Virus record (IMG/VR): IMGVR_UViG_3300045938_000231
Location: 5,423 to 69,422 of that record
Source: a virus
Lineage: Duplodnaviria; Caudoviricetes
DNA: 64,000 nucleotides
Direction: 5' to 3' (one strand)
Shown one piece after another: positions 23,777 to 64,000 of this stretch; position 1 is the first letter of the stretch; the number at the start of each line of letters is the position of its first letter. The position numbers and the translations under genes are program-made. The notes under the pieces were generated by a model, which was not told the DNA's origin, did not search any database, and saw nothing but the letters and a program-made list of their open reading frames with translations.

Positions 23777-25165
23777 CTACAGGTGGGACCACGACCTACC
23801 CTTCTTGATAGAGGAGACCAGGGAGGTAGAAATCCCGAATAGAGTTGAAATGTACCGACCCGTTTCACCTCTTAAAAGGAGACGCTTTATCTCCAGTACC
23901 TTGTCGGTAGTTAGGGCCGAATGGGGGTTTGCTTCGCCTTTGCGAGCTTTGCCTTGAAACTCGTAAACGAACCCGGTTACATGAGCCCAAATTTTGCCGC
24001 AACGTATTTTTGAAATTGCATCCTTGCTTATGTCGAATTTTAAGGCAATGTCAGGATTTGACCACCCAGCAAGAATCAGCTCTTTTATTTCCAAGACGTT
24101 GCTTTCATTCAGTTTAGCCATTCCGTGAAAGCTGCCTTTGGGATTCCCTTGTCCTAAATTATTGCGCTCGTTCCAGCCTGTTAGATGGTGCCATGTTCGG
24201 CCTATACGAACATCATTTATTGCATCAATACTAAACTTGGTAGCGGATTGTATTTTCCGGTTTGTAAGGCCATTTAATATCAATTCTTTAATTTTCAGAA
24301 CGTCGGTTTCGGCTAAAGTAGACAGGTGACAATCGCTACCGTTTGGCTTTGTTTTGTAATAGACCGGCGTTAAAACCGTTTCGGCTTTTCGCTTCTTTCG
24401 CTCTAAGTAGATGGTGGCATCTTTATACAGCCAAGCCAGAAGAGTAGACGTTTGGTCGCGACCACTGACGACCACTTGTATAATTTCGGGAGTAGTATGA
24501 TGCTTCTGAATAAATGATCGAATCTGACATTTATTTTCAATCAGTTCACCCAGCCTTTCAATGAACGGAATTGACCCTACTGCACCCACTACAGATTCCT
24601 GCCCTTCCCCCCTGAAACTAATCCAGCCATCACCGTCTATATAGCCTCGGATAAAGTGCGGCAATAGCTCTTCTGGCATCCATTCAGGAAAGGTCAGGGT
24701 AAATGATTTTGCTCGACCGCAACCCCACTTAGTAAGGGACTCCGACAACCTTTTACTGCCGATGTCAAGACAAGCCTGCTTGCGCTTATCCACCCGAATC
24801 GGGTGGTTACTATCCAGTGCAACCTTAAATGCTTCCAAAATGTGAACATCTCTCTCTTGAAGGTGTAGTGCTACTTTGTATTTCTGATCCTTCTCGCCGT
24901 TATACCCATCAGCATACAGAAAGCCCAAGAAGTAGGCTTTGGCCTCACAGTCTATGTGATCAAAATAAGCATCGTTGATTTTATGCTTAGTTGAGCAGCT
25001 TTCGGATTTGGTGCGCTTCTGGACGGCATTCTGTGATAGGATTTCATTTAAAGCTAGACGACCAATCTTAAACTGCTTTGTAAGGCTCGTGACTCTTGCC
25101 CCTTGAACATAAGCCCTTACCATTTGCTTTTGTTCTTCCGTGGATTTCTTGGGATATATTCTCAT
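23777..25165 (-). CDS. Free-standing LAGLIDADG homing endonuclease with three C-terminal HTH repeats (cassette A)
   Basis: AYFLGFLYADG and FIRGYIDGDG motifs; repeats ending GRTWHHL, GKIWAHV, GRSWSHL. Confidence 0.88.
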   Translation of the reverse strand: MRIYPKKSTEEQKQMVRAYVQGARVTSLTKQFKIGRLALNEILSQNAVQKRTKSESCSTKHKINDAYFDHIDCEAKAYFLGFLYADGYNGEKDQKYKVALHLQERDVHILEAFKVALDSNHPIRVDKRKQACLDIGSKRLSESLTKWGCGRAKSFTLTFPEWMPEELLPHFIRGYIDGDGWISFRGEGQESVVGAVGSIPFIERLGELIENKCQIRSFIQKHHTTPEIIQVVVSGRDQTSTLLAWLYKDATIYLERKKRKAETVLTPVYYKTKPNGSDCHLSTLAETDVLKIKELILNGLTNRKIQSATKFSIDAINDVRIGRTWHHLTGWNERNNLGQGNPKGSFHGMAKLNESNVLEIKELILAGWSNPDIALKFDISKDAISKIRCGKIWAHVTGFVYEFQGKARKGEANPHSALTTDKVLEIKRLLLRGETGRYISTLFGISTSLVSSIKKGRSWSHL

Positions 25166-41804: not shown

Positions 41805-41836
41805 CCTTGAAAAGATTGCCTATAAACTTAACTCAT

Positions 41837-43000
41837 ATGATTTGCTTATACTGTAATTTAGAGAAAGACGAAAGTGAGTTTTCACAAGAACACGTTATAC
41901 CAAAAGCTTTAGGAGGAAATATAGAAACTAACAATCCCTTCTCAATCAATAACGTTTGTAAAAAGTGTAACAATATAAGTGGACTCTTTATAGATGCTGC
42001 CTTTATTAAAAGTTGGACTTCGACAAAATCGAAAGCATATTTTTACTATAAATATTTTGATTTGACTATAGATTCAGTAGTTCCATTAGATTACCTAGGG
42101 GAATTCCAAAGTACTGAACTAGATGATAATATATGTGATGTATGGACTTGTGCAGGAGGGGATTTAATATATCACTTCCATAAGCCTTACCCCAAAGATA
42201 TCGACTGCCCTCCAATCGTTGGTATACCTTCAACAGCGTACAAGAAAGAGATTGATCCTGGGTTTGTAATTTTCTTCTTATTAACCAGTAACAAAGCGTG
42301 GCATCCAGCTATCCTAAAGGCATTAAATCAACAATTTAAAAAGTCTAGGTTTTATCTTGGAGTTGGCCCTAAGCCAGAAAATATACCAAATTTTTTTAAT
42401 TTAGAAGAAGATAAAAAGAAGTATTTAAACTTAGTGATGCCTGATGGCCGTGTTCAGAACATTCTTATAAAAATAGGGGTAAATTTTGATTTTAGATTTA
42501 TTTGTAAAATTGCTTTAGGTATTGGAGGGGCTGTTTTGCATGAGAGCTTCCAGCAAAGTCGTTCCGCACAATTGCTTAGAGATGGTATGTGGGCAAAGAC
42601 ATACGAACAGAAATTAAAAACAGAAGTAAATCTTAAGGGATCTTTTGCTTACACTATTCCTAAAAACTTGGAACCAGCCTTTATTTGGGAATCTGGACAT
42701 CTCGTGTTATTAAATATTATAAACAAATCTTTATACTTGAATGTAAACTTTTATGGTACAGACAATTTTACTGTACTATTATCTAATGAACCTCAACATT
42801 GGTCGGGAATTTTGGCGTCAAGCATAGCATACGTTATATGCCCAACGCTCAAAAGAGCTGTAGGCCCAGTAATGTTAAAAGATTTTTTAGCTTTCCAATT
42901 AGGTGAGATTAATGACCTTGATTCTTTAAATCAACTAAAGGAGGAAATGAATCGAAAGAGAGATATACCACCATTCTTTATAGATAGAGAAGATGCTTAG
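41837..43000 (+). CDS. N-terminal HNH nuclease with large unknown C-terminal domain
   Basis: CLYC...SQEHVIPKALGG...NNVCKKCNN; AT-rich. Confidence 0.82.
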   Translation: MICLYCNLEKDESEFSQEHVIPKALGGNIETNNPFSINNVCKKCNNISGLFIDAAFIKSWTSTKSKAYFYYKYFDLTIDSVVPLDYLGEFQSTELDDNICDVWTCAGGDLIYHFHKPYPKDIDCPPIVGIPSTAYKKEIDPGFVIFFLLTSNKAWHPAILKALNQQFKKSRFYLGVGPKPENIPNFFNLEEDKKKYLNLVMPDGRVQNILIKIGVNFDFRFICKIALGIGGAVLHESFQQSRSAQLLRDGMWAKTYEQKLKTEVNLKGSFAYTIPKNLEPAFIWESGHLVLLNIINKSLYLNVNFYGTDNFTVLLSNEPQHWSGILASSIAYVICPTLKRAVGPVMLKDFLAFQLGEINDLDSLNQLKEEMNRKRDIPPFFIDREDA

Positions 43001-45126: not shown

Positions 45127-46407
45127 ATGGCACCCAAAAGCGCCTTGTTAGGCAAAGAGGCAGAGGTTATCAAATTGTATGAAAGTGGTCAAAGTTGTAT
45201 TGGAGTCGCGAAACAGTATAAAGCTTCTGAACTGACTGTCAAAAAAATTCTACTTAAGAATGGGGTTGTTCTGAACAGACAAAAATCCTCAGAAAGGGCC
45301 ATTTACGTAGTACAGGCTTATCAGAACGGAAAGAGCCTTACAGCAACAGGGGACGAATTTGGTCTAAGCGCCATTGCTGTCTTAAAGATTCTGGCTAAAC
45401 ATGGTATTGAGCCTAGATCAAAAAGCAGACAGTTGAAAGAGAAGATGCTCAGGCAGGGAGAAGAAATAATAGAAGCTTACAGACAGGGAAAGAATCAGAA
45501 TGAAATCTGCACTACGTATAGAATTGGCCGTTTAGCTCTACTTTCCTTGCTTGAAAAGGCTGGTTGTAAGAAAAGGCACCACGGCGATAATATTCGACGC
45601 TACGCTGTAGATCACTCATATTTCGACAATATTGACTCAGAACAAAAAGCCTATTTTCTAGGCTACATGTTTGCAGATGGGTACAACAATGAGCAGGAAG
45701 GCTATTTCCTGTTGACTCTTCATCCAAAGGATGTAGAAGTACTTACTTCTTTCAAAAACGCACTCCAGACTGAGGCTCCTGTGCGCGTTAAACAGAGAGA
45801 GAGAAGTCCATATTGTAAATTACTTGTACACAGCAAACGACTATCCGAGCGACTAGCCGAACTAGGTTGCGTACAAGCCAAAACTTTTAAAATAACCTTC
45901 CCTAATTGGCTCAACCCAAATTTATATAATCACTTTGTACGTGGTTATTTCGATGGCGATGGGTCAATTTCAGACGTTAATAGGGCAAAATTCAAAAGCT
46001 TTATTGACATACTTGGTACTACGTCATTTATATCAACCCTTGCAGATATAGTTAGCAAGCTTTGCAATGTCAGGACTAAAATCATTGCACACCCCCGTAG
46101 CTTAGGCATTGAACGAGTGAATGTTCGGGGAAACAATCAAGTGAAACGAGTAGTGAGCTGGCTATATCAAGATGCCACGGTATTTTTAAGTCGAAAGAAG
46201 CAACGGGCCGATGCGATTTTATCAACCAATTTTGTCAGGGCAAGAGGTAAAGCAACAAAAAGAGCAGTAACGAAAAGCATGGCCCAAGAGATCAAAAACC
46301 TGTTAAGCGTTGAATTATCAGATCGTATCATCGCCGAGAGGTTTGATATTTCTACGCACGTTGTCTATCAAATCCGAACTGGCCGTTCTTGGGCTAGGGT
46401 ATTATAA
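45127..46407 (+). CDS. Free-standing LAGLIDADG homing endonuclease with HTH modules (cassette B)
   Basis: AYFLGYMFADG and FVRGYFDGDG motifs; three N-terminal HTH-like repeats; C-terminal GRSWARV module. Confidence 0.88.
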   Translation: MAPKSALLGKEAEVIKLYESGQSCIGVAKQYKASELTVKKILLKNGVVLNRQKSSERAIYVVQAYQNGKSLTATGDEFGLSAIAVLKILAKHGIEPRSKSRQLKEKMLRQGEEIIEAYRQGKNQNEICTTYRIGRLALLSLLEKAGCKKRHHGDNIRRYAVDHSYFDNIDSEQKAYFLGYMFADGYNNEQEGYFLLTLHPKDVEVLTSFKNALQTEAPVRVKQRERSPYCKLLVHSKRLSERLAELGCVQAKTFKITFPNWLNPNLYNHFVRGYFDGDGSISDVNRAKFKSFIDILGTTSFISTLADIVSKLCNVRTKIIAHPRSLGIERVNVRGNNQVKRVVSWLYQDATVFLSRKKQRADAILSTNFVRARGKATKRAVTKSMAQEIKNLLSVELSDRIIAERFDISTHVVYQIRTGRSWARVL

Positions 46408-54068: not shown

Positions 54069-55334
54069 TCATCGATGATTAATGTCACCCCCACTCCAGG
54101 GGTCCGTCAGCTCCCCATATCTGAGTCCGTCGAGTAAGTGATCGTGCTTAGGAACTGGTTTATCTGTCGGCTTTTTCTCATTGTCGAGTTCCCAGCGGTA
54201 CTCCTGATACTCGTAAGCTAGGTTGGCTGAACTCTCCGTGTAGTACCACTCACACCCCTGCACTTTCTTGATTCCGTAGAGGATCGAATCCGGCCCTTTC
54301 TTGGCTTTGATGACATTGAAGCCCTTATCCTGCAGGTAGGCAATGGATTTTGGCTCAGCATTATCAGCGATAATCGGACGAAAACCGACCTTTAGCGCCT
54401 TCAATCGACGTACTAATTCATCGTCAGATATGCCTGTTTCGTAGATTAACTCCTTAGCGTACCGCTTTTTGTTGTGGCGTTTGACCTCCGACAGCGCCAA
54501 CGGATCGTTCGAGTAGCCAAAGTCCAGCGTGTAGTAGCTGCTGTACGGCAGCCTGCTGAACTCGTAATCAGGTATGGCAGTCCAGTTCCGGTAGATCCGA
54601 CCTTTCGCCCCTTCGCTAACCAGGCCACGTATGACAGTCCAGTACCATTCCGGATTGGTGTAGAAGTACTGCTCGTAGTTGTCGATCGTTTTCTGATCGA
54701 TGTTAGCGATGTTGTTATAGTAAGTTGAGAAAATAGATAGGAAATTACTTTCGGTTTTAGGTTTGGCGATGTAATACCCTTCTATTTTCGACTCCTGAAG
54801 CGTGTACCAACGCTTGATGATCCAGTGGTTTTTCTTCGGCGGATTGAAGATTAGGACCACGCGTAATTCCCCTTTTGTGGTACGCAGGGAGTCATCAAGT
54901 TGTTGGAATTCGGTCTCCTCGATCTCCTCCGCTTCCTCGACGAATACGTGTGTCGCTCCGGCGATGGATTTCATCCGCGCGGTCTGCCCTTTGCTACTGG
55001 CCCGGAAGCCCCGTGAACGGATGGTGTTGCCGGTGGGGATGTGAACCACCGACATTTCATTGTTATTGATGTGGAAGTCTGCTTTGTTGAGGGTGCCTTT
55101 CTCCTCCTTCTCATTCATGCGGTCCATCAGATCCCGCCAAAGCGATTCCCGTATGTCTTTCCCCAGGGCGCGCATGAGGTAGCCACGGAAATAGACCGTA
55201 TCCATCAGGCAGGCCAGCGCGTACTCTGTACCAAAGAAAGAGCCGCCCCGGCCACGTCCACCCCAAAGGTGGATGTACCGGACGGCGGCATCAGCATTAA
55301 CTACAGGTACAAAGACGGGGTTGCACGCGAACAT
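54069..55334 (-). CDS. terL: Terminase large subunit (PBSX-like)
   Basis: GGRGRGGS Walker A, VFVEEAEE Walker B, LIFNPP coupling motif, LDFGYSNDP and DHLLDGLRY nuclease motifs. Confidence 0.95.
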   Translation of the reverse strand: MFACNPVFVPVVNADAAVRYIHLWGGRGRGGSFFGTEYALACLMDTVYFRGYLMRALGKDIRESLWRDLMDRMNEKEEKGTLNKADFHINNNEMSVVHIPTGNTIRSRGFRASSKGQTARMKSIAGATHVFVEEAEEIEETEFQQLDDSLRTTKGELRVVLIFNPPKKNHWIIKRWYTLQESKIEGYYIAKPKTESNFLSIFSTYYNNIANIDQKTIDNYEQYFYTNPEWYWTVIRGLVSEGAKGRIYRNWTAIPDYEFSRLPYSSYYTLDFGYSNDPLALSEVKRHNKKRYAKELIYETGISDDELVRRLKALKVGFRPIIADNAEPKSIAYLQDKGFNVIKAKKGPDSILYGIKKVQGCEWYYTESSANLAYEYQEYRWELDNEKKPTDKPVPKHDHLLDGLRYGELTDPWSGGDINHR

Positions 55335-55729: not shown

Positions 55730-56278
55730 TTAGATTATACCGTTTCGACGTGGCCAACCCTTCACCAGGTCGACAATGATTGCGCGATTCGCCAGGCGTA
55801 TAAGGCCGGCCCGACGTAGCCGATCGACGGACCGGTCGAAACGCATTTGCTGACTCTCTAGCATCAGACGCCGATACCGCTTCATCGTTTGACGTACCAG
55901 CTGAGGGGGGAACGCAATGACCTCCTCTTTGACAGGATCAGCCTCACCCAAGAAGCCGGGACCAATGTTGTATTTATCGGAAGCAGGCCACGGAATGACA
56001 TGAGACTTGATATTGACGTTTACCTCGTGAACCTCATCACTGCCCTGGTATCTCCAGAGAATGGGAAACAGGGCGTACGTCTCTGCCAGCTCATTCATGG
56101 CCTGGTACAACATCTCACGAGCACAGGTTACCTGCTCATTTCGGACACGATCACATTTCTGCACGCAGGTGCCTAATTCGTTTACGTCAGGAGGGTAGAT
56201 CGATCTCAGCCTAATATTGACAGGCTCTTTTCTATTTGCCTTTAGAGCGTATTCCAATGCATCGACAGTATGGCTCAT
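55730..56278 (-). CDS. Hypothetical protein
   Basis: 182 aa, ATGA coupling. Confidence 0.65.
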   Translation of the reverse strand: MSHTVDALEYALKANRKEPVNIRLRSIYPPDVNELGTCVQKCDRVRNEQVTCAREMLYQAMNELAETYALFPILWRYQGSDEVHEVNVNIKSHVIPWPASDKYNIGPGFLGEADPVKEEVIAFPPQLVRQTMKRYRRLMLESQQMRFDRSVDRLRRAGLIRLANRAIIVDLVKGWPRRNGII

Positions 56279-56421
56279 CGTTCGTATTTGGAGGGGATAA
56301 AGGCCACAACAAAGCCCAGGATGAGGAGTATTTCTGAAAACTGATTATCTCCAGCTAGGCGCATTACACACGCACAGATCAGGCAGATGATTATGATAAA
56401 GGCTTTGCCAAGCATGCTCAT
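56275..56421 (-). CDS. Small two-TM peptide (48 aa)
   Basis: MSMLGKAFIIIICLICACVMRLAGDNQFSEILLILGFVVAFIPSKYER, right after the terS stop. Confidence 0.55.
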   Translation of the reverse strand: MSMLGKAFIIIICLICACVMRLAGDNQFSEILLILGFVVAFIPSKYER

Positions 56422-56425
56422 TGAC

Positions 56426-57010
56426 TTAATTCTGTTTAGGGGTTGGTAAACTATCCGGATCCGGTACTGCCCGACCTCCAGTGTGATCGAGCACCAGCCA
56501 CGTACGAGCTGCCACGACGTTGTTGCCTTCGTTATCTGTCTGAGAAATCTTGAAAGGAGCATCCAAGCCCAGCAGCTGACGCCTGGCCTGTGAGCATTTG
56601 AGCATACCATCGAGACAGCGGGGATCGCCAAGCCGCTCCTCCGTATAGTCGGACGTGCGCATATTCTTGATCGACTGCTTTTTCCGTTTCTCCGGATCTT
56701 GCTCAGCCGTATCGACGTCGCCACTCATGACGGTGTACTTTTTCTTGATCGGCTTCTTTGAATCGATCCAGGCCTGCCAGTAGGTAGCTTCCAGCATATC
56801 AATCTTGGCCAGCTCCTTATTTTTGGCCTCGTTGAAATTGAAGATTGTCGAGTCCTCCCAGGCTTTGCGGATAGCAGCCAGGTCTTGACTGATTTGCCCC
56901 TGGGAAACGTTTACCTCTTCGGCTATTTCGTGCTGGAGCATCCCCTGCAGATAGAGCCGACTCACCAGCTCACGCCGGGCCAGTATGTCGAGTTCTTTGT
57001 TAAATGGCAT
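56426..57010 (-). CDS. terS: Terminase small subunit
   Basis: N-terminal HTH (RRELVSRLYLQGMLQHEIAEEVNVSQGQISQD), helical core, upstream of terL. Confidence 0.78.
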   Translation of the reverse strand: MPFNKELDILARRELVSRLYLQGMLQHEIAEEVNVSQGQISQDLAAIRKAWEDSTIFNFNEAKNKELAKIDMLEATYWQAWIDSKKPIKKKYTVMSGDVDTAEQDPEKRKKQSIKNMRTSDYTEERLGDPRCLDGMLKCSQARRQLLGLDAPFKISQTDNEGNNVVAARTWLVLDHTGGRAVPDPDSLPTPKQN

Positions 57011-57055: not shown

Positions 57056-57904
57056 TTATGCCACTTTTTGGAACCTCGTACTGACCAGCTTTGGACAGAC
57101 GTTTTGCCAGTTTACCCGGTGATGATACCGCCCGTATTTGATGACCAGCTTTACCGCGTTGGGAGCAATCATGACAGCGTAAGCCGTCTTACGTACCGTA
57201 CCCGATTCCTGGTATATCTCCGTGTTGCCTCCCTTCTCAGATTGGCTATCGCGCATACTGATCTGCATGAAGTTTAGGCTGAGCTCGACCTTACCACGAC
57301 GCCACGACTCTATCGCATTGATCAAGTCGTCATTCATCCGGCCACGCCACACAGTGAACAGTTCCGGATCACTCGGCATGTTATGAGCGTTGAAGACACG
57401 ACGGCTGAATTTGAATACCCGGTCAGGTCTAGCATCGGCGCCAACCGCAAAGCCACAATTCACAAGCCCCGCTTTATGGGCGAAGGCGCTGAGCAGACTA
57501 AGACGTTTCTGGAAAGCCTCACCATCTAACCGCAGGTGCTTGGGCGCGTCGTTCTGTTTGGTGATACTATAGAAAGCCGTATAGTCGTCGTCAAACTGCC
57601 AGTGGCGCAGTTCCCCCCGCTCCTGGCTGATCCGGCGCGTAGCGTTGCGAACCGGGACAGCCCCGCTCCCCATTGTCTCGACGCCGAAGTTGTCGAGTAG
57701 GTCAGATTCTTTTACCTGCTCGTACCAGTCGAACACTAACACACGTTCCCCCCAGGTAGCCTGGTAGTCGGGTAGCTTCTCGTCATTCGTCCCACACACG
57801 ATAAACTAGGGGCCGGGGTAATTCATATCGGTCAAGGTCTGCGCGGTCGTACACTTGGGGCGCCCCTTCGAAATGATGTAAATCGTATTCAGTGACTCAC
57901 TCAT
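57056..57904 (-). pseudogene. TET-associated (TAGT/GREB1-like) glycosyltransferase interrupted by an in-frame TAG at codon 33
   Basis: ATG 57904 gives MSESLNTIYIISKGRP...NYPGP-TAG-FIVCG...VRN...HWQFDDDY...GGNT...HHRVNW; TAG at 57806-57808. Confidence 0.8.
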
Positions 57905-58691
57905 GATCGGCGTCGGTTTGAGTGTCACTAAATCCATTCAATTCCTTCACCTCATCGATGATATCGGAGAAGCCGTTCTCGATCAGCCCGTCTTTGTCCA
58001 GCAGCACAAGCCCCAACTTCTCAAATAGACGCTGCTCATCGGGGGTAGCCTGGTAGGCGTAGTAGTCGGCGATCTTGGAGAAATTGAACGACGTAAAGAA
58101 GCAGGCCCGTGCGCGCATCATTTCCCTGAGGACCGGATCAACCAGGGCGTTGATTTCGGTCTCAAACTTATTTTCACAGCAGAACAGATCACTGGGGCGA
58201 TGAACCGTCTGCTTTGGCTCGTATAAAACCTCCCCTACTTTCGGCGAATAGGAAGAACGAAGCGGTTGCTCGGGTTCTGATTCAGGAACCGTAAAGCCCC
58301 AGGCCTCCGTGTCGATGTCGAATACAGCCCCGAGTCGCTCAACTTCAGCCATATCGAACGATAGGTTTTCCTGCTGAACCTTATTGTCGGCTAGGGCCAG
58401 CTCGTGGAATTCTTTCGTGCCTGGTTGAATGTCGGTACGGACAGTAGCGACCAACGTATCACCATCGGCCGGGACAAAGACGACTTTCGTTTTACCGAGT
58501 GCACGCATCGCTTCCGTTACGTGGTTACCGCCGATGATTGTTTTGTCAGCCGCTAACACAACGCCCCGACCAACCCCTAGTTCGTCGAGCGATTTCTTCA
58601 GTAGCTCTTTACCATGCTCCGTGCCCTGGTTGGCATTGTTGGGATCGAACTTGAGCTCGTCGATTGTCCCTTCGTAGATTTCCTCGGTCAT
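57897..58691 (-). CDS. ParB/Srx-like N-terminal domain fused to a conserved C-terminal domain
   Basis: IDELKFDPNNAN...SLDELGVGRGVVL....IIGGNH...LALADNK; C-terminal FNFSKIADYYA...LVLLDKDGLIENGF. Confidence 0.8.
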   Translation of the reverse strand: MTEEIYEGTIDELKFDPNNANQGTEHGKELLKKSLDELGVGRGVVLAADKTIIGGNHVTEAMRALGKTKVVFVPADGDTLVATVRTDIQPGTKEFHELALADNKVQQENLSFDMAEVERLGAVFDIDTEAWGFTVPESEPEQPLRSSYSPKVGEVLYEPKQTVHRPSDLFCCENKFETEINALVDPVLREMMRARACFFTSFNFSKIADYYAYQATPDEQRLFEKLGLVLLDKDGLIENGFSDIIDEVKELNGFSDTQTDADHE

Positions 58692-59137
58692 ACGGACTTA
58701 ATGGTTTTGGAGTCCATATCAAGTCGATAGAAGGGGGATGGGTAATCACGCGGATCTAGCCCCAGTTCAACAGCAGACACGCAGAAGGTCATGACGGGCA
58801 CTTTGACTACATCTTTTGAGCCACACGTCCATACCTTACGAAGCCCATCACACAGTTGACGGCTGCACATGGCAGCGCCGGTTACACCAAACTTTGGGTC
58901 TTTTAGCTCCCGAATTAGGAGCGCATTCTTGGCGCTGGTTTGGAAAATGTAGAATGACCCCTTATGCTTGAAGAGGGCAACACGAAGCGTTGCCCCTCCG
59001 ATATTGAGCAGGTCATACAAGCCTTTTGTGAGGTAAACCTCACCATCATTCATGCGAAAATTCAGAAAGTACTTAGCGTTACGTTTGGGCAATGAATCGG
59101 CATAAAAAAAGCCGGATTCGGCACTCGTGTCGAACAT
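58688..59137 (-). CDS. Hypothetical protein, first gene of the late arm
   Basis: 149 aa, ATGA coupling to the ParB-like gene. Confidence 0.7.
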   Translation of the reverse strand: MFDTSAESGFFYADSLPKRNAKYFLNFRMNDGEVYLTKGLYDLLNIGGATLRVALFKHKGSFYIFQTSAKNALLIRELKDPKFGVTGAAMCSRQLCDGLRKVWTCGSKDVVKVPVMTFCVSAVELGLDPRDYPSPFYRLDMDSKTIKSV

Positions 59138-59280
59138 AGATAATCTTGGATGAAGAGATGAGAGACAATTGCGACTGCTAAAATATAGAAGAAATATTTT
59201 TATTTTTTATTACCCTTATTTATTTGTTTTTAAACCTTACTATACCTTACTTTGCAATGTAATCATAAACAATTACATCC
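59138..59280. promoter_or_regulatory. AT-rich divergent promoter region
   Basis: Intergenic gap between the two arms; TTTG (59223), 20-nt spacer, TTACTTTG (59247), one mismatch from the Bacteroidota consensus. Confidence 0.55.
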
Positions 59281-59637
59281 ATGAAAAGTACGGTTAACAC
59301 TTCCCCTATCGCTCGGGCAGACGCTATGCGCCTGGCCTGGGAAATCCGCCGGCAAGGCATTGCATTCGGCGAGGCTATCAAGAAGGCTTGGAGAACCCTC
59401 CGCCTGAAAATCCAACTCGGTAAGACCGACGAAAAAGGCACCTGGATTGCCTTTGAAAAAGAGGATGGCGAGATACGTAGAGCACTGGCTACACGTACGT
59501 TAGAGCACATTCCTACGCAGTTCCACCCAAAGAAAGCCGACGGTGCTACGTCTGGTCTGGTGGTTAAGTTCTTCGATATTTTAAAGGACGGTTGGCGCTC
59601 ATTCCGCGCTGATCGGCTAATTATCACTAACGCTTAA
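59281..59637 (+). CDS. DUF2693 / WYL-like SH3-fold protein
   Basis: AMRLAW..R...FGEAIKKAW...FEKEDGEIRRALAT...FFDILKDGWRSFRADRL. Confidence 0.78.
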   Translation: MKSTVNTSPIARADAMRLAWEIRRQGIAFGEAIKKAWRTLRLKIQLGKTDEKGTWIAFEKEDGEIRRALATRTLEHIPTQFHPKKADGATSGLVVKFFDILKDGWRSFRADRLIITNA

Positions 59638-62706: not shown

Positions 62707-63071
62707 ACCAACTCAGCCTATCATTTGAAGCAATGGAAACACCAGTCGATATGGTACCAGCTCCAGCTAAACCAACGAAGGAAATTAACTGGGAACAGTA
62801 CGATCGGGAATTGCAGGAATACTATCGTCCACTGCCTGACATAATAGATCCTGACGAGGAGGTACGCGTAAGCTGGCACTGCCCGGTACTACGTGGGCCA
62901 AGATCCCTAATGAACTGCTCAAGCATGTCGATGACATTCAAGCTATCTGCACTGGATCCGGACGCGATTTACTGCCGGCACCCTGGGGGAGCCTGGGAAC
63001 CGATGGGACCAATGCCCTGCCCAAGTTGCGCGAGTAAGGTTGTTAAATTCCTAAAGCTATTCCTGCCATGA
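62688..63071 (+). CDS. Hypothetical protein with Cys/His motifs
   Basis: 127 aa; CPSC; overlaps neighbours. Confidence 0.6.
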   Translation: MGRRRINQLSLSFEAMETPVDMVPAPAKPTKEINWEQYDRELQEYYRPLPDIIDPDEEVRVSWHCPVLRGPRSLMNCSSMSMTFKLSALDPDAIYCRHPGGAWEPMGPMPCPSCASKVVKFLKLFLP

Positions 63072-64000
63072 AAATAGCCTTTTTCAAACGTTCGGATAAC
63101 GATCCGAGCACGCTGATTCTGCCGAAACAACCTGGTAAATGTCAGTATAGAAACTATACCGAGCTTGAGAAACAGTTCATACGTGATCATTATGAAAGCC
63201 TTACCACAACTGAAATCGCACAGGCGTTAGGTCGGCCAAAGTCGGGTATTCAAACCTATGCCTGGCGGGTGCTCAAGATTCGAAAGTCTCCTCAGGCATT
63301 CGCAAAATCTGTAAGCAAAGGACAGCAGGCTAGACAGGATATAGATCTGTATTCTGAACAGGAAAGGCAATTTATGCGCGATAACTGGCAGACAATGACC
63401 AACGCTGAAATAGCTAGTGCATTGGGCCGCACATTTGCTTCTGTCAAAAAGTATGGAAATAATGAACTGGGACTGAAAAGGACTCACGAAACTTTGAGTA
63501 GGATAAGCCAGCGCCCTAATGCTGGCCAGTTTCAAAAGGGTCAGCTTCCCCCTAACACCATATATGGCGACGAACAGACAATCAGAATACGGCACAGTAA
63601 TAAAGGGCCTGATTACAAGTACATCCGTACAGGTTTCCGTAAATGGCAGGAGTATCATAGATGGTTATGGATTCAGCACAACGGTCCAATACCCAAAGGC
63701 TTTATAGTAGCCTTTGAAAATGGAGATACGATGGACGTACGGATTGATAATCTTAAGCTGATTACCCTGAAAGAAAACGTATTGCGTAATTCTGGCAGTA
63801 TCAACTTATCAGATGGTTTTGTGGTCAATACACTAGCCCGACTTAATCCAGAACTAAAGCAGGAAATTCGATCAAATCATCCCGAATTAATTGAAGTCAA
63901 ACGCGCTCATATTCTTCTGAATCGGGCCTTAAAATCAGACAATCATGCCGAAATCATTGGAAATACGCCTGGAGGATCGTCTACGGACAATGAAGGATAA
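63068..64000 (+). CDS. HNH-fold protein with two N-terminal HTH repeats, catalytically degenerate
   Basis: Two YTE.EKQF.RD...T..EIA.ALGR repeats; FQKGQLPPN; HRWLWIQHNGPIPKGFIVAFENG. Confidence 0.78.
   Translation: MKIAFFKRSDNDPSTLILPKQPGKCQYRNYTELEKQFIRDHYESLTTTEIAQALGRPKSGIQTYAWRVLKIRKSPQAFAKSVSKGQQARQDIDLYSEQERQFMRDNWQTMTNAEIASALGRTFASVKKYGNNELGLKRTHETLSRISQRPNAGQFQKGQLPPNTIYGDEQTIRIRHSNKGPDYKYIRTGFRKWQEYHRWLWIQHNGPIPKGFIVAFENGDTMDVRIDNLKLITLKENVLRNSGSINLSDGFVVNTLARLNPELKQEIRSNHPELIEVKRAHILLNRALKSDNHAEIIGNTPGGSSTDNEG

Follow-up and report, generated by a model that had tools for sequence, protein, structure and literature searches.

A ParB-TAGT gene cassette with an amber codon in its glycosyltransferase frame at the head of the packaging operon of a putative Spirosoma prophage

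A frame for a TAGT-family glycosyltransferase, interrupted by one amber codon and overlapping a ParB-like gene, is found just upstream of the terminase genes in a 64,000-nt stretch of phage DNA (the window). The explanation preferred here, at a probability of roughly 0.55, is that the two genes form a cassette heading the packaging operon of a Spirosoma prophage, that the glycosyltransferase was recently inactivated, and that the intact cassette glycosylates phage DNA. We infer DNA as the substrate, and an anti-restriction role. As sequenced, translation of the gene ends after 32 residues and a full-length glycosyltransferase cannot be made from it. We regard the cassette as an uncharacterised variation on the ParB-linked DNA-modification modules already known from phages. 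The first-pass annotation had described a DNA glycosylation module linked to packaging and silenced by a single amber codon; the observation is confirmed, and the interpretation is partly supported.

The TAGT frame and its amber codon

The frame lies on the minus strand at positions 57056..57904 and measures 849 nt (282 sense codons and the final stop). Its read-through protein (P0002) matches the Pfam family TAGT (TET-associated glycosyltransferase; JGT/GREB1-like), PF20691, over residues 8-217 with 44.8 bits against a gathering cut-off of 27.5 bits (E=1.9e-11), and PHROG 842, labelled T-even type 'beta-glucosyl-HMC-alpha-glucosyltransferase', at E=1e-28. TAGT was reportedly defined by Iyer et al. 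in 2013. There are 236 detectable homologues, and PF20691 is found in homologues too; the best is 75% identical, and a homologue from an Arsenicibacter rosenii prophage (70% identity) is annotated 'GREB1-related'. The AF2 model of the read-through protein (pLDDT 81) displays a GT-A fold. Its top PDB matches, with a probability of 1.00, are the GT-A enzymes WrtF, the glycosyltransferase domain of LH3, and TarP; GalNAc-T is also among the closest solved folds, and the top viral models in a BFVD search are TAGT-domain phage proteins. A family-profile sequence search of the PDB gave no match, and fold comparison alone succeeded. The residues D105-D107 (DDD, the DxD metal/nucleotide-sugar motif), R86 and the N-terminal SKGRP loop are all invariant, and the protein displays neither a signal peptide nor a membrane segment. 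The read-through frame is a TAGT-family enzyme with a predicted GT-A fold, and both the profile searches and the model bear out the TAGT/GREB1-like assignment first made from sequence motifs.

The only in-frame stop within 57056-57904 is the TAG at codon 33 (57807..57809, minus strand), in the context YPGP*FIV. Translation and alignment show that it replaces an invariant Trp (TGG), from which it differs by a single transition. The coding strand reads CCC TAG TTT where the inferred ancestor is CCC TGG TTT, and the altered base is at position 57808, with a T on the plus strand where a C is expected. An otherwise intact frame with a stop one base from TGG is what had been noted at first; the position singled out then, 57807, is inside the amber codon but one nucleotide away from the altered base. 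A homologue alignment at this codon, suggested in the first-pass annotation, gave Trp33 in 27/27 homologues (28 sequences with the frame of the window). In the same alignment the remaining invariant columns are all retained on both sides of the stop, including N6, Y9, I10, S12-P16, R86, DDD 105-107, FNAHN, GGNT, GTVRK and RYHH, and the motifs originally listed (IYIISKGRP, VRN, HWQFDDD, GGNT and HH) all fall on invariant columns. The remainder of the gene is untouched, thus the change appears to be recent. The TAGT ORF is uninterrupted in 20/20 relatives examined, at codon 33 and elsewhere, and the stop is therefore not a conserved feature. The public gene call at this locus is a shortened protein of 228 aa, which indicates that the TAG is present in the source record.

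A GTG at codon 36, 6 nt past the stop, is a possible restart. According to the AF2 model, a product starting there would miss strand beta1 (residues 7-11), the invariant SKGRP loop and helix 1. The beta1/SKGRP region of GT-A enzymes holds the nucleotide-sugar, and for this reason the restart product should be inactive. An N-terminal strand and loop are thus lost, as had been proposed, but the region is the nucleotide-sugar-binding beta1/KGRP element, and the catalytic role that had been given to it is unproven.

Origin of the stop

A real and recent TGG-to-TAG nonsense mutation at codon 33 is the highly probable origin of the stop. On the plus strand, the inner C of an inferred CCAGG (a CCWGG site) has become T. 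C-to-T at this position of CCWGG is the classic pattern of 5-methylcytosine deamination, provided that the host methylates CCWGG; the site is mildly rarer than expected in the contig (158 observed vs about 203 expected). The transition would have arisen while the TAGT gene was silent and unselected in the lysogen.

An error of sequencing or assembly, or a consensus that took up a minority allele, is an unlikely source of the TAG; the phage would then truly have TGG and an intact enzyme. An error would fit with one transition in an otherwise perfect gene with the other invariant residues all kept. It would also fit with the finding of this exact sequence in one contig only, so that there is no independent copy, and with the closest match of the host gene, a metagenome protein of 96% identity, so that the source may be a metagenome assembly. 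An exact-protein look-up with the source gene call returned no match, and a phage blastn search no near relative displaying the ancestral codon 33. The contig, however, is without signs of poor quality, as it is about 93% coding under greedy ORF choice and has ORFs of 1671 and 1385 aa that are intact, and a C-to-T at an inferred CCWGG is a typical biological mutation. Partial cassettes are moreover frequent in E. coli prophages (see below), and consensus substitution errors are rare relative to real nonsense mutations in silent prophage genes.

Some full-length enzyme could still be made if the amber were decoded, be it by regulated read-through, a host suppressor tRNA or recoding. A stop situated early in a translationally coupled and otherwise intact gene is consistent with such decoding, and controlled read-through had been among the initial proposals, but it is very improbable here. 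TAG ends 16 of the 88 greedily chosen ORFs of the contig, including the 1385-aa gene; the entire 69.4-kb record, window included, has no tRNA gene and no suppressor tRNA; none of the 20 relatives has a stop; and codon 33 requires the invariant Trp. To our knowledge there is no natural TAG-to-Trp decoding. Global recoding of TAG was considered separately and is ruled out by the same 16/88 ORFs, among them long structural genes.

The ParB-like partner and the packaging operon

The ParB-like gene (P0001, 264 aa; 57897..58691, minus strand) precedes the TAGT frame. Its stop codon, TGA (57897-57899), and the TAGT start codon, ATG (57902-57904), overlap as ATGAGTGA, 8 nt, in agreement with the coupling first described. 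Upstream, an ORF of 149 aa (58688..59137, minus strand) is the first gene of the minus-strand operon and overlaps the start of the ParB-like gene by 4 nt (ATGA). By these two overlaps the three genes are translationally coupled. The 149-aa ORF has no Pfam or PHROG match, finds only viral hypothetical proteins in the protein atlas, and has no homologue adjoining the cassette in 85 related loci.

The next gene downstream of the TAGT frame is terS-like (56426..57010, minus strand; 194 aa), as had been stated, with an N-terminal HTH recognised by weak Sigma70_r4/HTH matches. It is intact. Its protein shows 42% identity over 155 residues, in a single frame, to a terL-overlapping ORF of a related locus (L004). 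The overlapping ORFs 56275-56724 and 56426-57010 might have represented a second broken gene of the operon; this was ruled out, since the terS-like protein matches its homologue in one frame along its length. Two to three small ORFs separate the terS-like gene from the gene for the large terminase subunit, terL (54069..55334, minus strand; Terminase_3 E=1e-16, Terminase_3C E=1e-12). A search for parS- or pac-like repeats around the cassette revealed nothing above chance.

The record is classified in IMG/VR as a 'provirus' and comprises 69,422 bases from a contig of 166.7 kb. At its left end is a host gene for an HD-domain phosphohydrolase that is 89% identical to a protein of Spirosoma sp. KUDC1026, and the element encodes an integrase, a tape-measure protein, a GH108 lysin, antirepressors and Erf. 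Its gene content is best explained by a temperate phage that is probably integrated in a Spirosoma chromosome. With the terS-like gene intact and a coding density of about 93%, the prophage looks otherwise intact.

P0001 matches PHROG 620 (ParB-like) at E=6e-17. No Pfam model matches it at E <=0.01; its orthologues carry PF02195. The AF2 model displays a ParB/Srx-type N-domain (residues 1-135), a disordered linker (138-159) and a helical C-terminal domain (160-230), with no HTH DNA-binding domain. Foldseek matches are to pNOB8 ParB-N, Noc and the ParB proteins of Myxococcus and Caulobacter, with weak E-values and high probability; the ParB/Srx fold is also found by Foldseek in sulfiredoxin and a serine kinase, which are non-DNA enzymes. 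Across 21 partners the strongly conserved segments are the linker motif YSxKxGEVxYEPK and a C-terminal block, KIADYYAYQAT...LVLLD, and the N-domain is variable. The ParB proteins of the window and of two related loci (L001 and L021) have NNANQG and GGNHVTEA where most of the family has NPR and GGNMRLKA. The N-domain in this clade is thus without the NPR and GxxR arginines used in CTP binding.

A profile HMM of the ParB N-domain finds it directly upstream of TAGT in 28/28 close loci (21/21 when non-redundant) and in the upstream flank of TAGT, mostly adjacent, in 43 of 57 distant loci. The corresponding profile of the C-terminal domain detects only the 28 close loci and none of the 57 distant ones. 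Mean pairwise identity is 57% for TAGT, 52% for the ParB C-terminal domain and 32% for the N-domain; compared with locus L004 alone, the values are 74%, 58% and 22%. The C-terminal domain tracks the identity of TAGT and the N-domain diverges, which shows that the linker, the C-terminal domain and TAGT were co-inherited and that the N-domain was exchanged. The linker, ParB C-terminal domain and TAGT are therefore the unit of inheritance, where the term denotes co-inheritance only and not physical contact.

Occurrence of the cassette and its possible substrates

The ParB-like gene overlaps the TAGT gene in all 21 non-redundant close loci. A gene for UDP-galactopyranose mutase (Glf) is beside the cassette in 12 of these, and the terL family of the window is recognisable in 11, at 1.2-2.6 kb downstream; there is no Glf in the window. 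More distant versions, with TAGT proteins 27-29% identical to that of the window, are found in cultured phages. Lactobacillus phage c5 displays the order cos site, ORF1 (ParB-like), ORF2 (GT), two small ORFs and terL; Lactobacillus phage phi jlb1 also has a distant ParB-TAGT version; and in Salmonella phage SPF_0923 the order trkG, ParB, GT, terminase is that of the Rac prophage. Part of ynaK together with a 'GREB1-related protein' gene is present in 1,580 of 5,426 complete E. coli genomes. The Rac-type cassette is at least 80% present in 889 of the 1,580 and less than 80% present in the other 691, and E. coli K-12 retains only the start of ynaK plus the ydaY remnant. Partial cassettes are thus common in resident prophages, and the lesion in the window is unremarkable. 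The Rac-type ynaK/GREB1-related pair and ORF1-ORF2 of c5 resemble the pair in the window in that a ParB-like gene overlaps a TAGT-like gene (about 27-29% identity) and is followed by small ORFs and the terminase, but their ParB C-terminal domain differs from that of the window. From gene order in these loci, ParB-TAGT appears as a widespread, self-contained cassette upstream of terS/terL.

To assay for an enzyme that could make an acceptor base, essentially all ORFs of the 69.4-kb record were scanned directly with hmmscan. No Tet_JBP (PF12851), other 2OG oxygenase, thymidylate synthase (PF00303) or DNA methyltransferase was detected. The absence of TET/JBP and hydroxymethylase genes from the window, noted earlier by eye, is thereby upheld, and the rest of the record, where a hydroxylase might have been located, is likewise without Tet_JBP. 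A hidden dioxygenase in the neighbouring ORFs was also considered and rejected: the 149-aa ORF belongs to no family, and the C-terminal half of the ParB is helical and not a jelly roll. In the complete 50.8-kb terminal-repeat genome of a relative with the order ParB-TAGT-Glf (G014), hmmscan identified 22 Pfam families and no acceptor-making enzyme.

A profile search found Tet_JBP in 0/50 related viral records, 16 of them at least 90% complete, in a run whose positive control gave no signal; for the A. rosenii genome and for phages c5, phi jlb1 and SPF_0923 the same search, with the control equally silent, gave no match exceeding noise. These tallies carry less weight because the control was silent, and the direct hmmscans are free of that weakness. 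ThyA was found in 1/50 related viral records (control positive in 10 genomes) and, by profile search with the control again positive, in 0/3 of phages c5, phi jlb1 and SPF_0923. The relatives are also without a hydroxylase, so that its absence characterises the cassette in general and is not peculiar to this window, and with neither Tet_JBP nor ThyA the known chemistry, a sugar added onto hmC, hmU or 5hoC, has no substrate here.

Three known systems can be compared with the cassette. A phage ParB of the layout NBD-linker-CTD, without HTH, activates its cognate 5mYOX thymine dioxygenase on dsDNA; mutants in its NTP-binding residues were not markedly impaired in activation, and the commonest neighbours of phage 5mYOX genes are GTs, ParBs and terminases (O'Toole et al., PNAS 2026, PMC13229309). 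The ParB of the window similarly has a ParB/Srx N-domain, an unstructured linker, a helical CTD and no HTH, and its gene likewise adjoins that of a modification-family enzyme near the terminase; in the 5mYOX pairs this enzyme is a post-replicative DNA modifier. [quoted passage not shown] The partner here is, in contrast, a GT-A enzyme, no 5mYOX is present anywhere in the record, and the ParB of the window, unlike that of most relatives, no longer has the arginines of NPR and GxxR. Activation of a GT by a ParB would have no known precedent.

The second system consists of the JGT-like GT-A phage enzymes, which glycosylate 5hmC in DNA, an acceptor supplied by the C5-methyltransferase and 5mYOX encoded nearby (Pyle et al., bioRxiv 10.1101/2023.12.21.572611 / Cell Rep 2024). 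About 65% of the GT contigs surveyed in that work are without 5mYOX or ThyS, and the authors judged those less likely to be DNA-modifying (bioRxiv 10.1101/2023.12.21.572611). Like these enzymes and the base-J glucosyltransferase, the TAGT protein of the window belongs to PF20691, has a GT-A fold with an active-site signature of Arg and DDD, and counts TarP among its closest solved structures. The window differs in having no methyltransferase, 5mYOX or ThyS, and in that the gene is broken.

In the third, glycosylated 5-hydroxycytosine of phages RB69, DLP3 and Rhizobium phage RL38JI requires a ThyA homologue (D169N) that makes 5hodCMP before replication, and RL38JI makes UDP-galactofuranose with a phage NDP-sugar mutase (PMC13326640). 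The cassette relatives with Glf also encode a mutase for UDP-galactofuranose, and glycosylation of RL38JI DNA proceeds without a hydroxymethyl group. In contrast to this pathway, ThyA is absent from the record of the window and from 49/50 related viral records, and the cassette phages are small and encode no DNA polymerase where checked (G014 and phage c5). No description of a ParB-GT pair without a hydroxylase was found in the accessible literature.

In the preferred explanation, glycosylation of phage DNA, the intact cassette, which opens the late (packaging) operon, would work late in infection. As donor the GT-A enzyme would take a UDP-sugar, possibly UDP-galactofuranose in the relatives that add the Glf mutase. 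The ParB-like protein may be the cognate DNA-loading or activating partner of the GT, by analogy with the ParB-dependent phage thymine dioxygenases, and the phage DNA would be glycosylated just before it is packaged. Counted against this explanation are the lack of an acceptor-making enzyme, the protein target of GREB1, the lost CTP-binding arginines in the ParB of the window, and the doubt expressed by the authors of the GT survey.

A target other than DNA is possible, if doubtful. The cassette, stop or no stop, would then modify a glycan or a protein (the ParB itself, the terminase, the portal or a virion protein), with the ParB/Srx protein acting as an adaptor or as a partner that binds nucleotides. 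Galactofuranose is typically found in surface glycans. Polyol phosphates, glycans and proteins are the substrates of TarP, WrtF, LH3 and GalNAc-T, the solved folds closest to the enzyme. Speaking against such a target, the enzyme itself is cytoplasmic, with no signal peptide or membrane segment. No recognised base-hydroxylating enzyme is present in the record or in the complete relatives, and the ParB/Srx fold with its occurrence in sulfiredoxin and serine kinase, together with the degenerate CTP-binding residues in the ParB of the window, is consistent with a non-DNA role. Against this, TAGT is always tied to a ParB-like gene near the terminase rather than to genes for structural proteins or lysogenic conversion; DNA is the substrate of JGT and of the only TAGT-like phage enzymes that have been characterised; and the only characterised phage ParB of the same layout serves a DNA-base-modifying enzyme. 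A protein target nevertheless stays alive because GREB1, a member of the same Pfam family, O-GlcNAcylates a protein (PMC7968844).

A further reading, which we hold to be rather unlikely, is that the cassette glycosylates DNA on its own, with no hydroxylated base required beforehand. During packaging the GT-A enzyme, helped by ParB, would attach its sugar (galactofuranose in many members) straight to the backbone, to a DNA end or to a canonical base, and such a system would extend from Spirosoma and Lactobacillus phages to the Rac-type prophages of E. coli. If this were true, the window would hold a natural knock-out allele.

Taken alone, the stop codon is nothing out of the ordinary, either a prophage lesion or a base-call error, and the value of the locus lies in the cassette: a GT of the family of base-J and phage-DNA glycosylation is tied to ParB in many unrelated phages that have no TET/JBP or thymidylate-synthase homologue. 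The question of its role is directly testable, since cultured Lactobacillus phages and hundreds of Rac-type prophages of E. coli carry the cassette in intact form. Should the cassette modify DNA, the activating role of ParB would extend beyond the dioxygenases to DNA-modifying enzymes in general.

Domain exchange in the ParB-like partner and the genes upstream

Alignment of the ParB-like protein of the window (57897-58691) with its counterpart in the related locus L004 shows 22% identity in the N-terminal domain. Identity in the linker and C-terminal domain is conserved, at 58%, and the accompanying TAGT sequences are 74% identical. Judging from these comparisons, the N-terminal ParB domain is swapped among lineages; the linker and C-terminal domain are kept together with TAGT. 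The same alignment of ParB-like partners shows that the NPR and GxxR arginines have been lost in the window's clade.

Upstream of the ParB-like gene, and translationally coupled to it via ATGA, is a 149-aa open reading frame of no known family (58688-59137). A homologue of this frame adjoining the cassette was found in none of the related loci. Farther upstream, a 126-aa Arg/Ser-rich frame with a GTG start (59247-59627, minus strand) looks spurious; it is overlapped by an antisense frame on the plus strand (59281-59637). This antisense region (59247-59637), with an AT-rich palindrome at 59179-59212, probably serves as the divergent promoter region separating the late operon from the early one.

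Sequence context of the amber codon

In the interval 57800-57815, the inferred ancestral codon 33 of TAGT falls within CCTGG/CCAGG, and thus the amber would have arisen by a change of CCAGG to CTAGG. Deamination of 5-methylcytosine at a putative Dcm-type site would leave this pattern. CCWGG is mildly rarer than expected in the contig (158 observed, about 203 expected).

Host, provirus boundary and homing-endonuclease-like genes

An HD-domain phosphohydrolase is encoded at the left end of the record, outside the window (contig bases 1-1275, L087 1-1275). It is 96% identical to a metagenome protein and 89% identical to a protein of Spirosoma sp. KUDC1026, the latter indicating that the host is a Spirosoma. 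Host DNA thus makes up this end of the "provirus" record, and the provirus boundary lies inside the record.

Dispersed along the prophage are two LAGLIDADG_3 + HTH proteins of 462 and 426 aa (23777-25165 and 45127-46407) and two HNH proteins, HNH_5 and HNH_3 (41807-43000 and 63068-64000). Four homing-endonuclease-like genes are an unusually high number for a temperate phage.

Related cassettes and the donor sugar

The Rac-prophage ynaK gene (ParB/Srx), with the adjoining "GREB1-related protein" gene, is a distant version of the ParB-TAGT cassette. It is found in Salmonella phage SPF_0923 (L095, 1935-3651) and, as an E. coli example, in NZ_CP010440.1 (2182497-2182750). Among 5,426 complete genomes of E. 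coli, 1,580 carry some part of it and 889 retain at least 80%; in K-12 MG1655 it is reduced to the start of ynaK and a ydaY remnant.

A complete 50.8-kb relative (G014, L088-L090) encodes, besides ParB-TAGT-Glf, a MazG-like nucleotide pyrophosphohydrolase and DnaB, and no recognisable polymerase, methyltransferase or hydroxylase was found in that genome. Glf, the UDP-galactopyranose mutase, is absent from the window and from the Arsenicibacter rosenii prophage. Its gene directly adjoins the TAGT gene in 12 of the 21 close loci (L002, 10836-11942; L003, 8977-10083; and 10 others). This placement suggests that the donor sugar in the Glf-bearing cassettes is galactofuranose.
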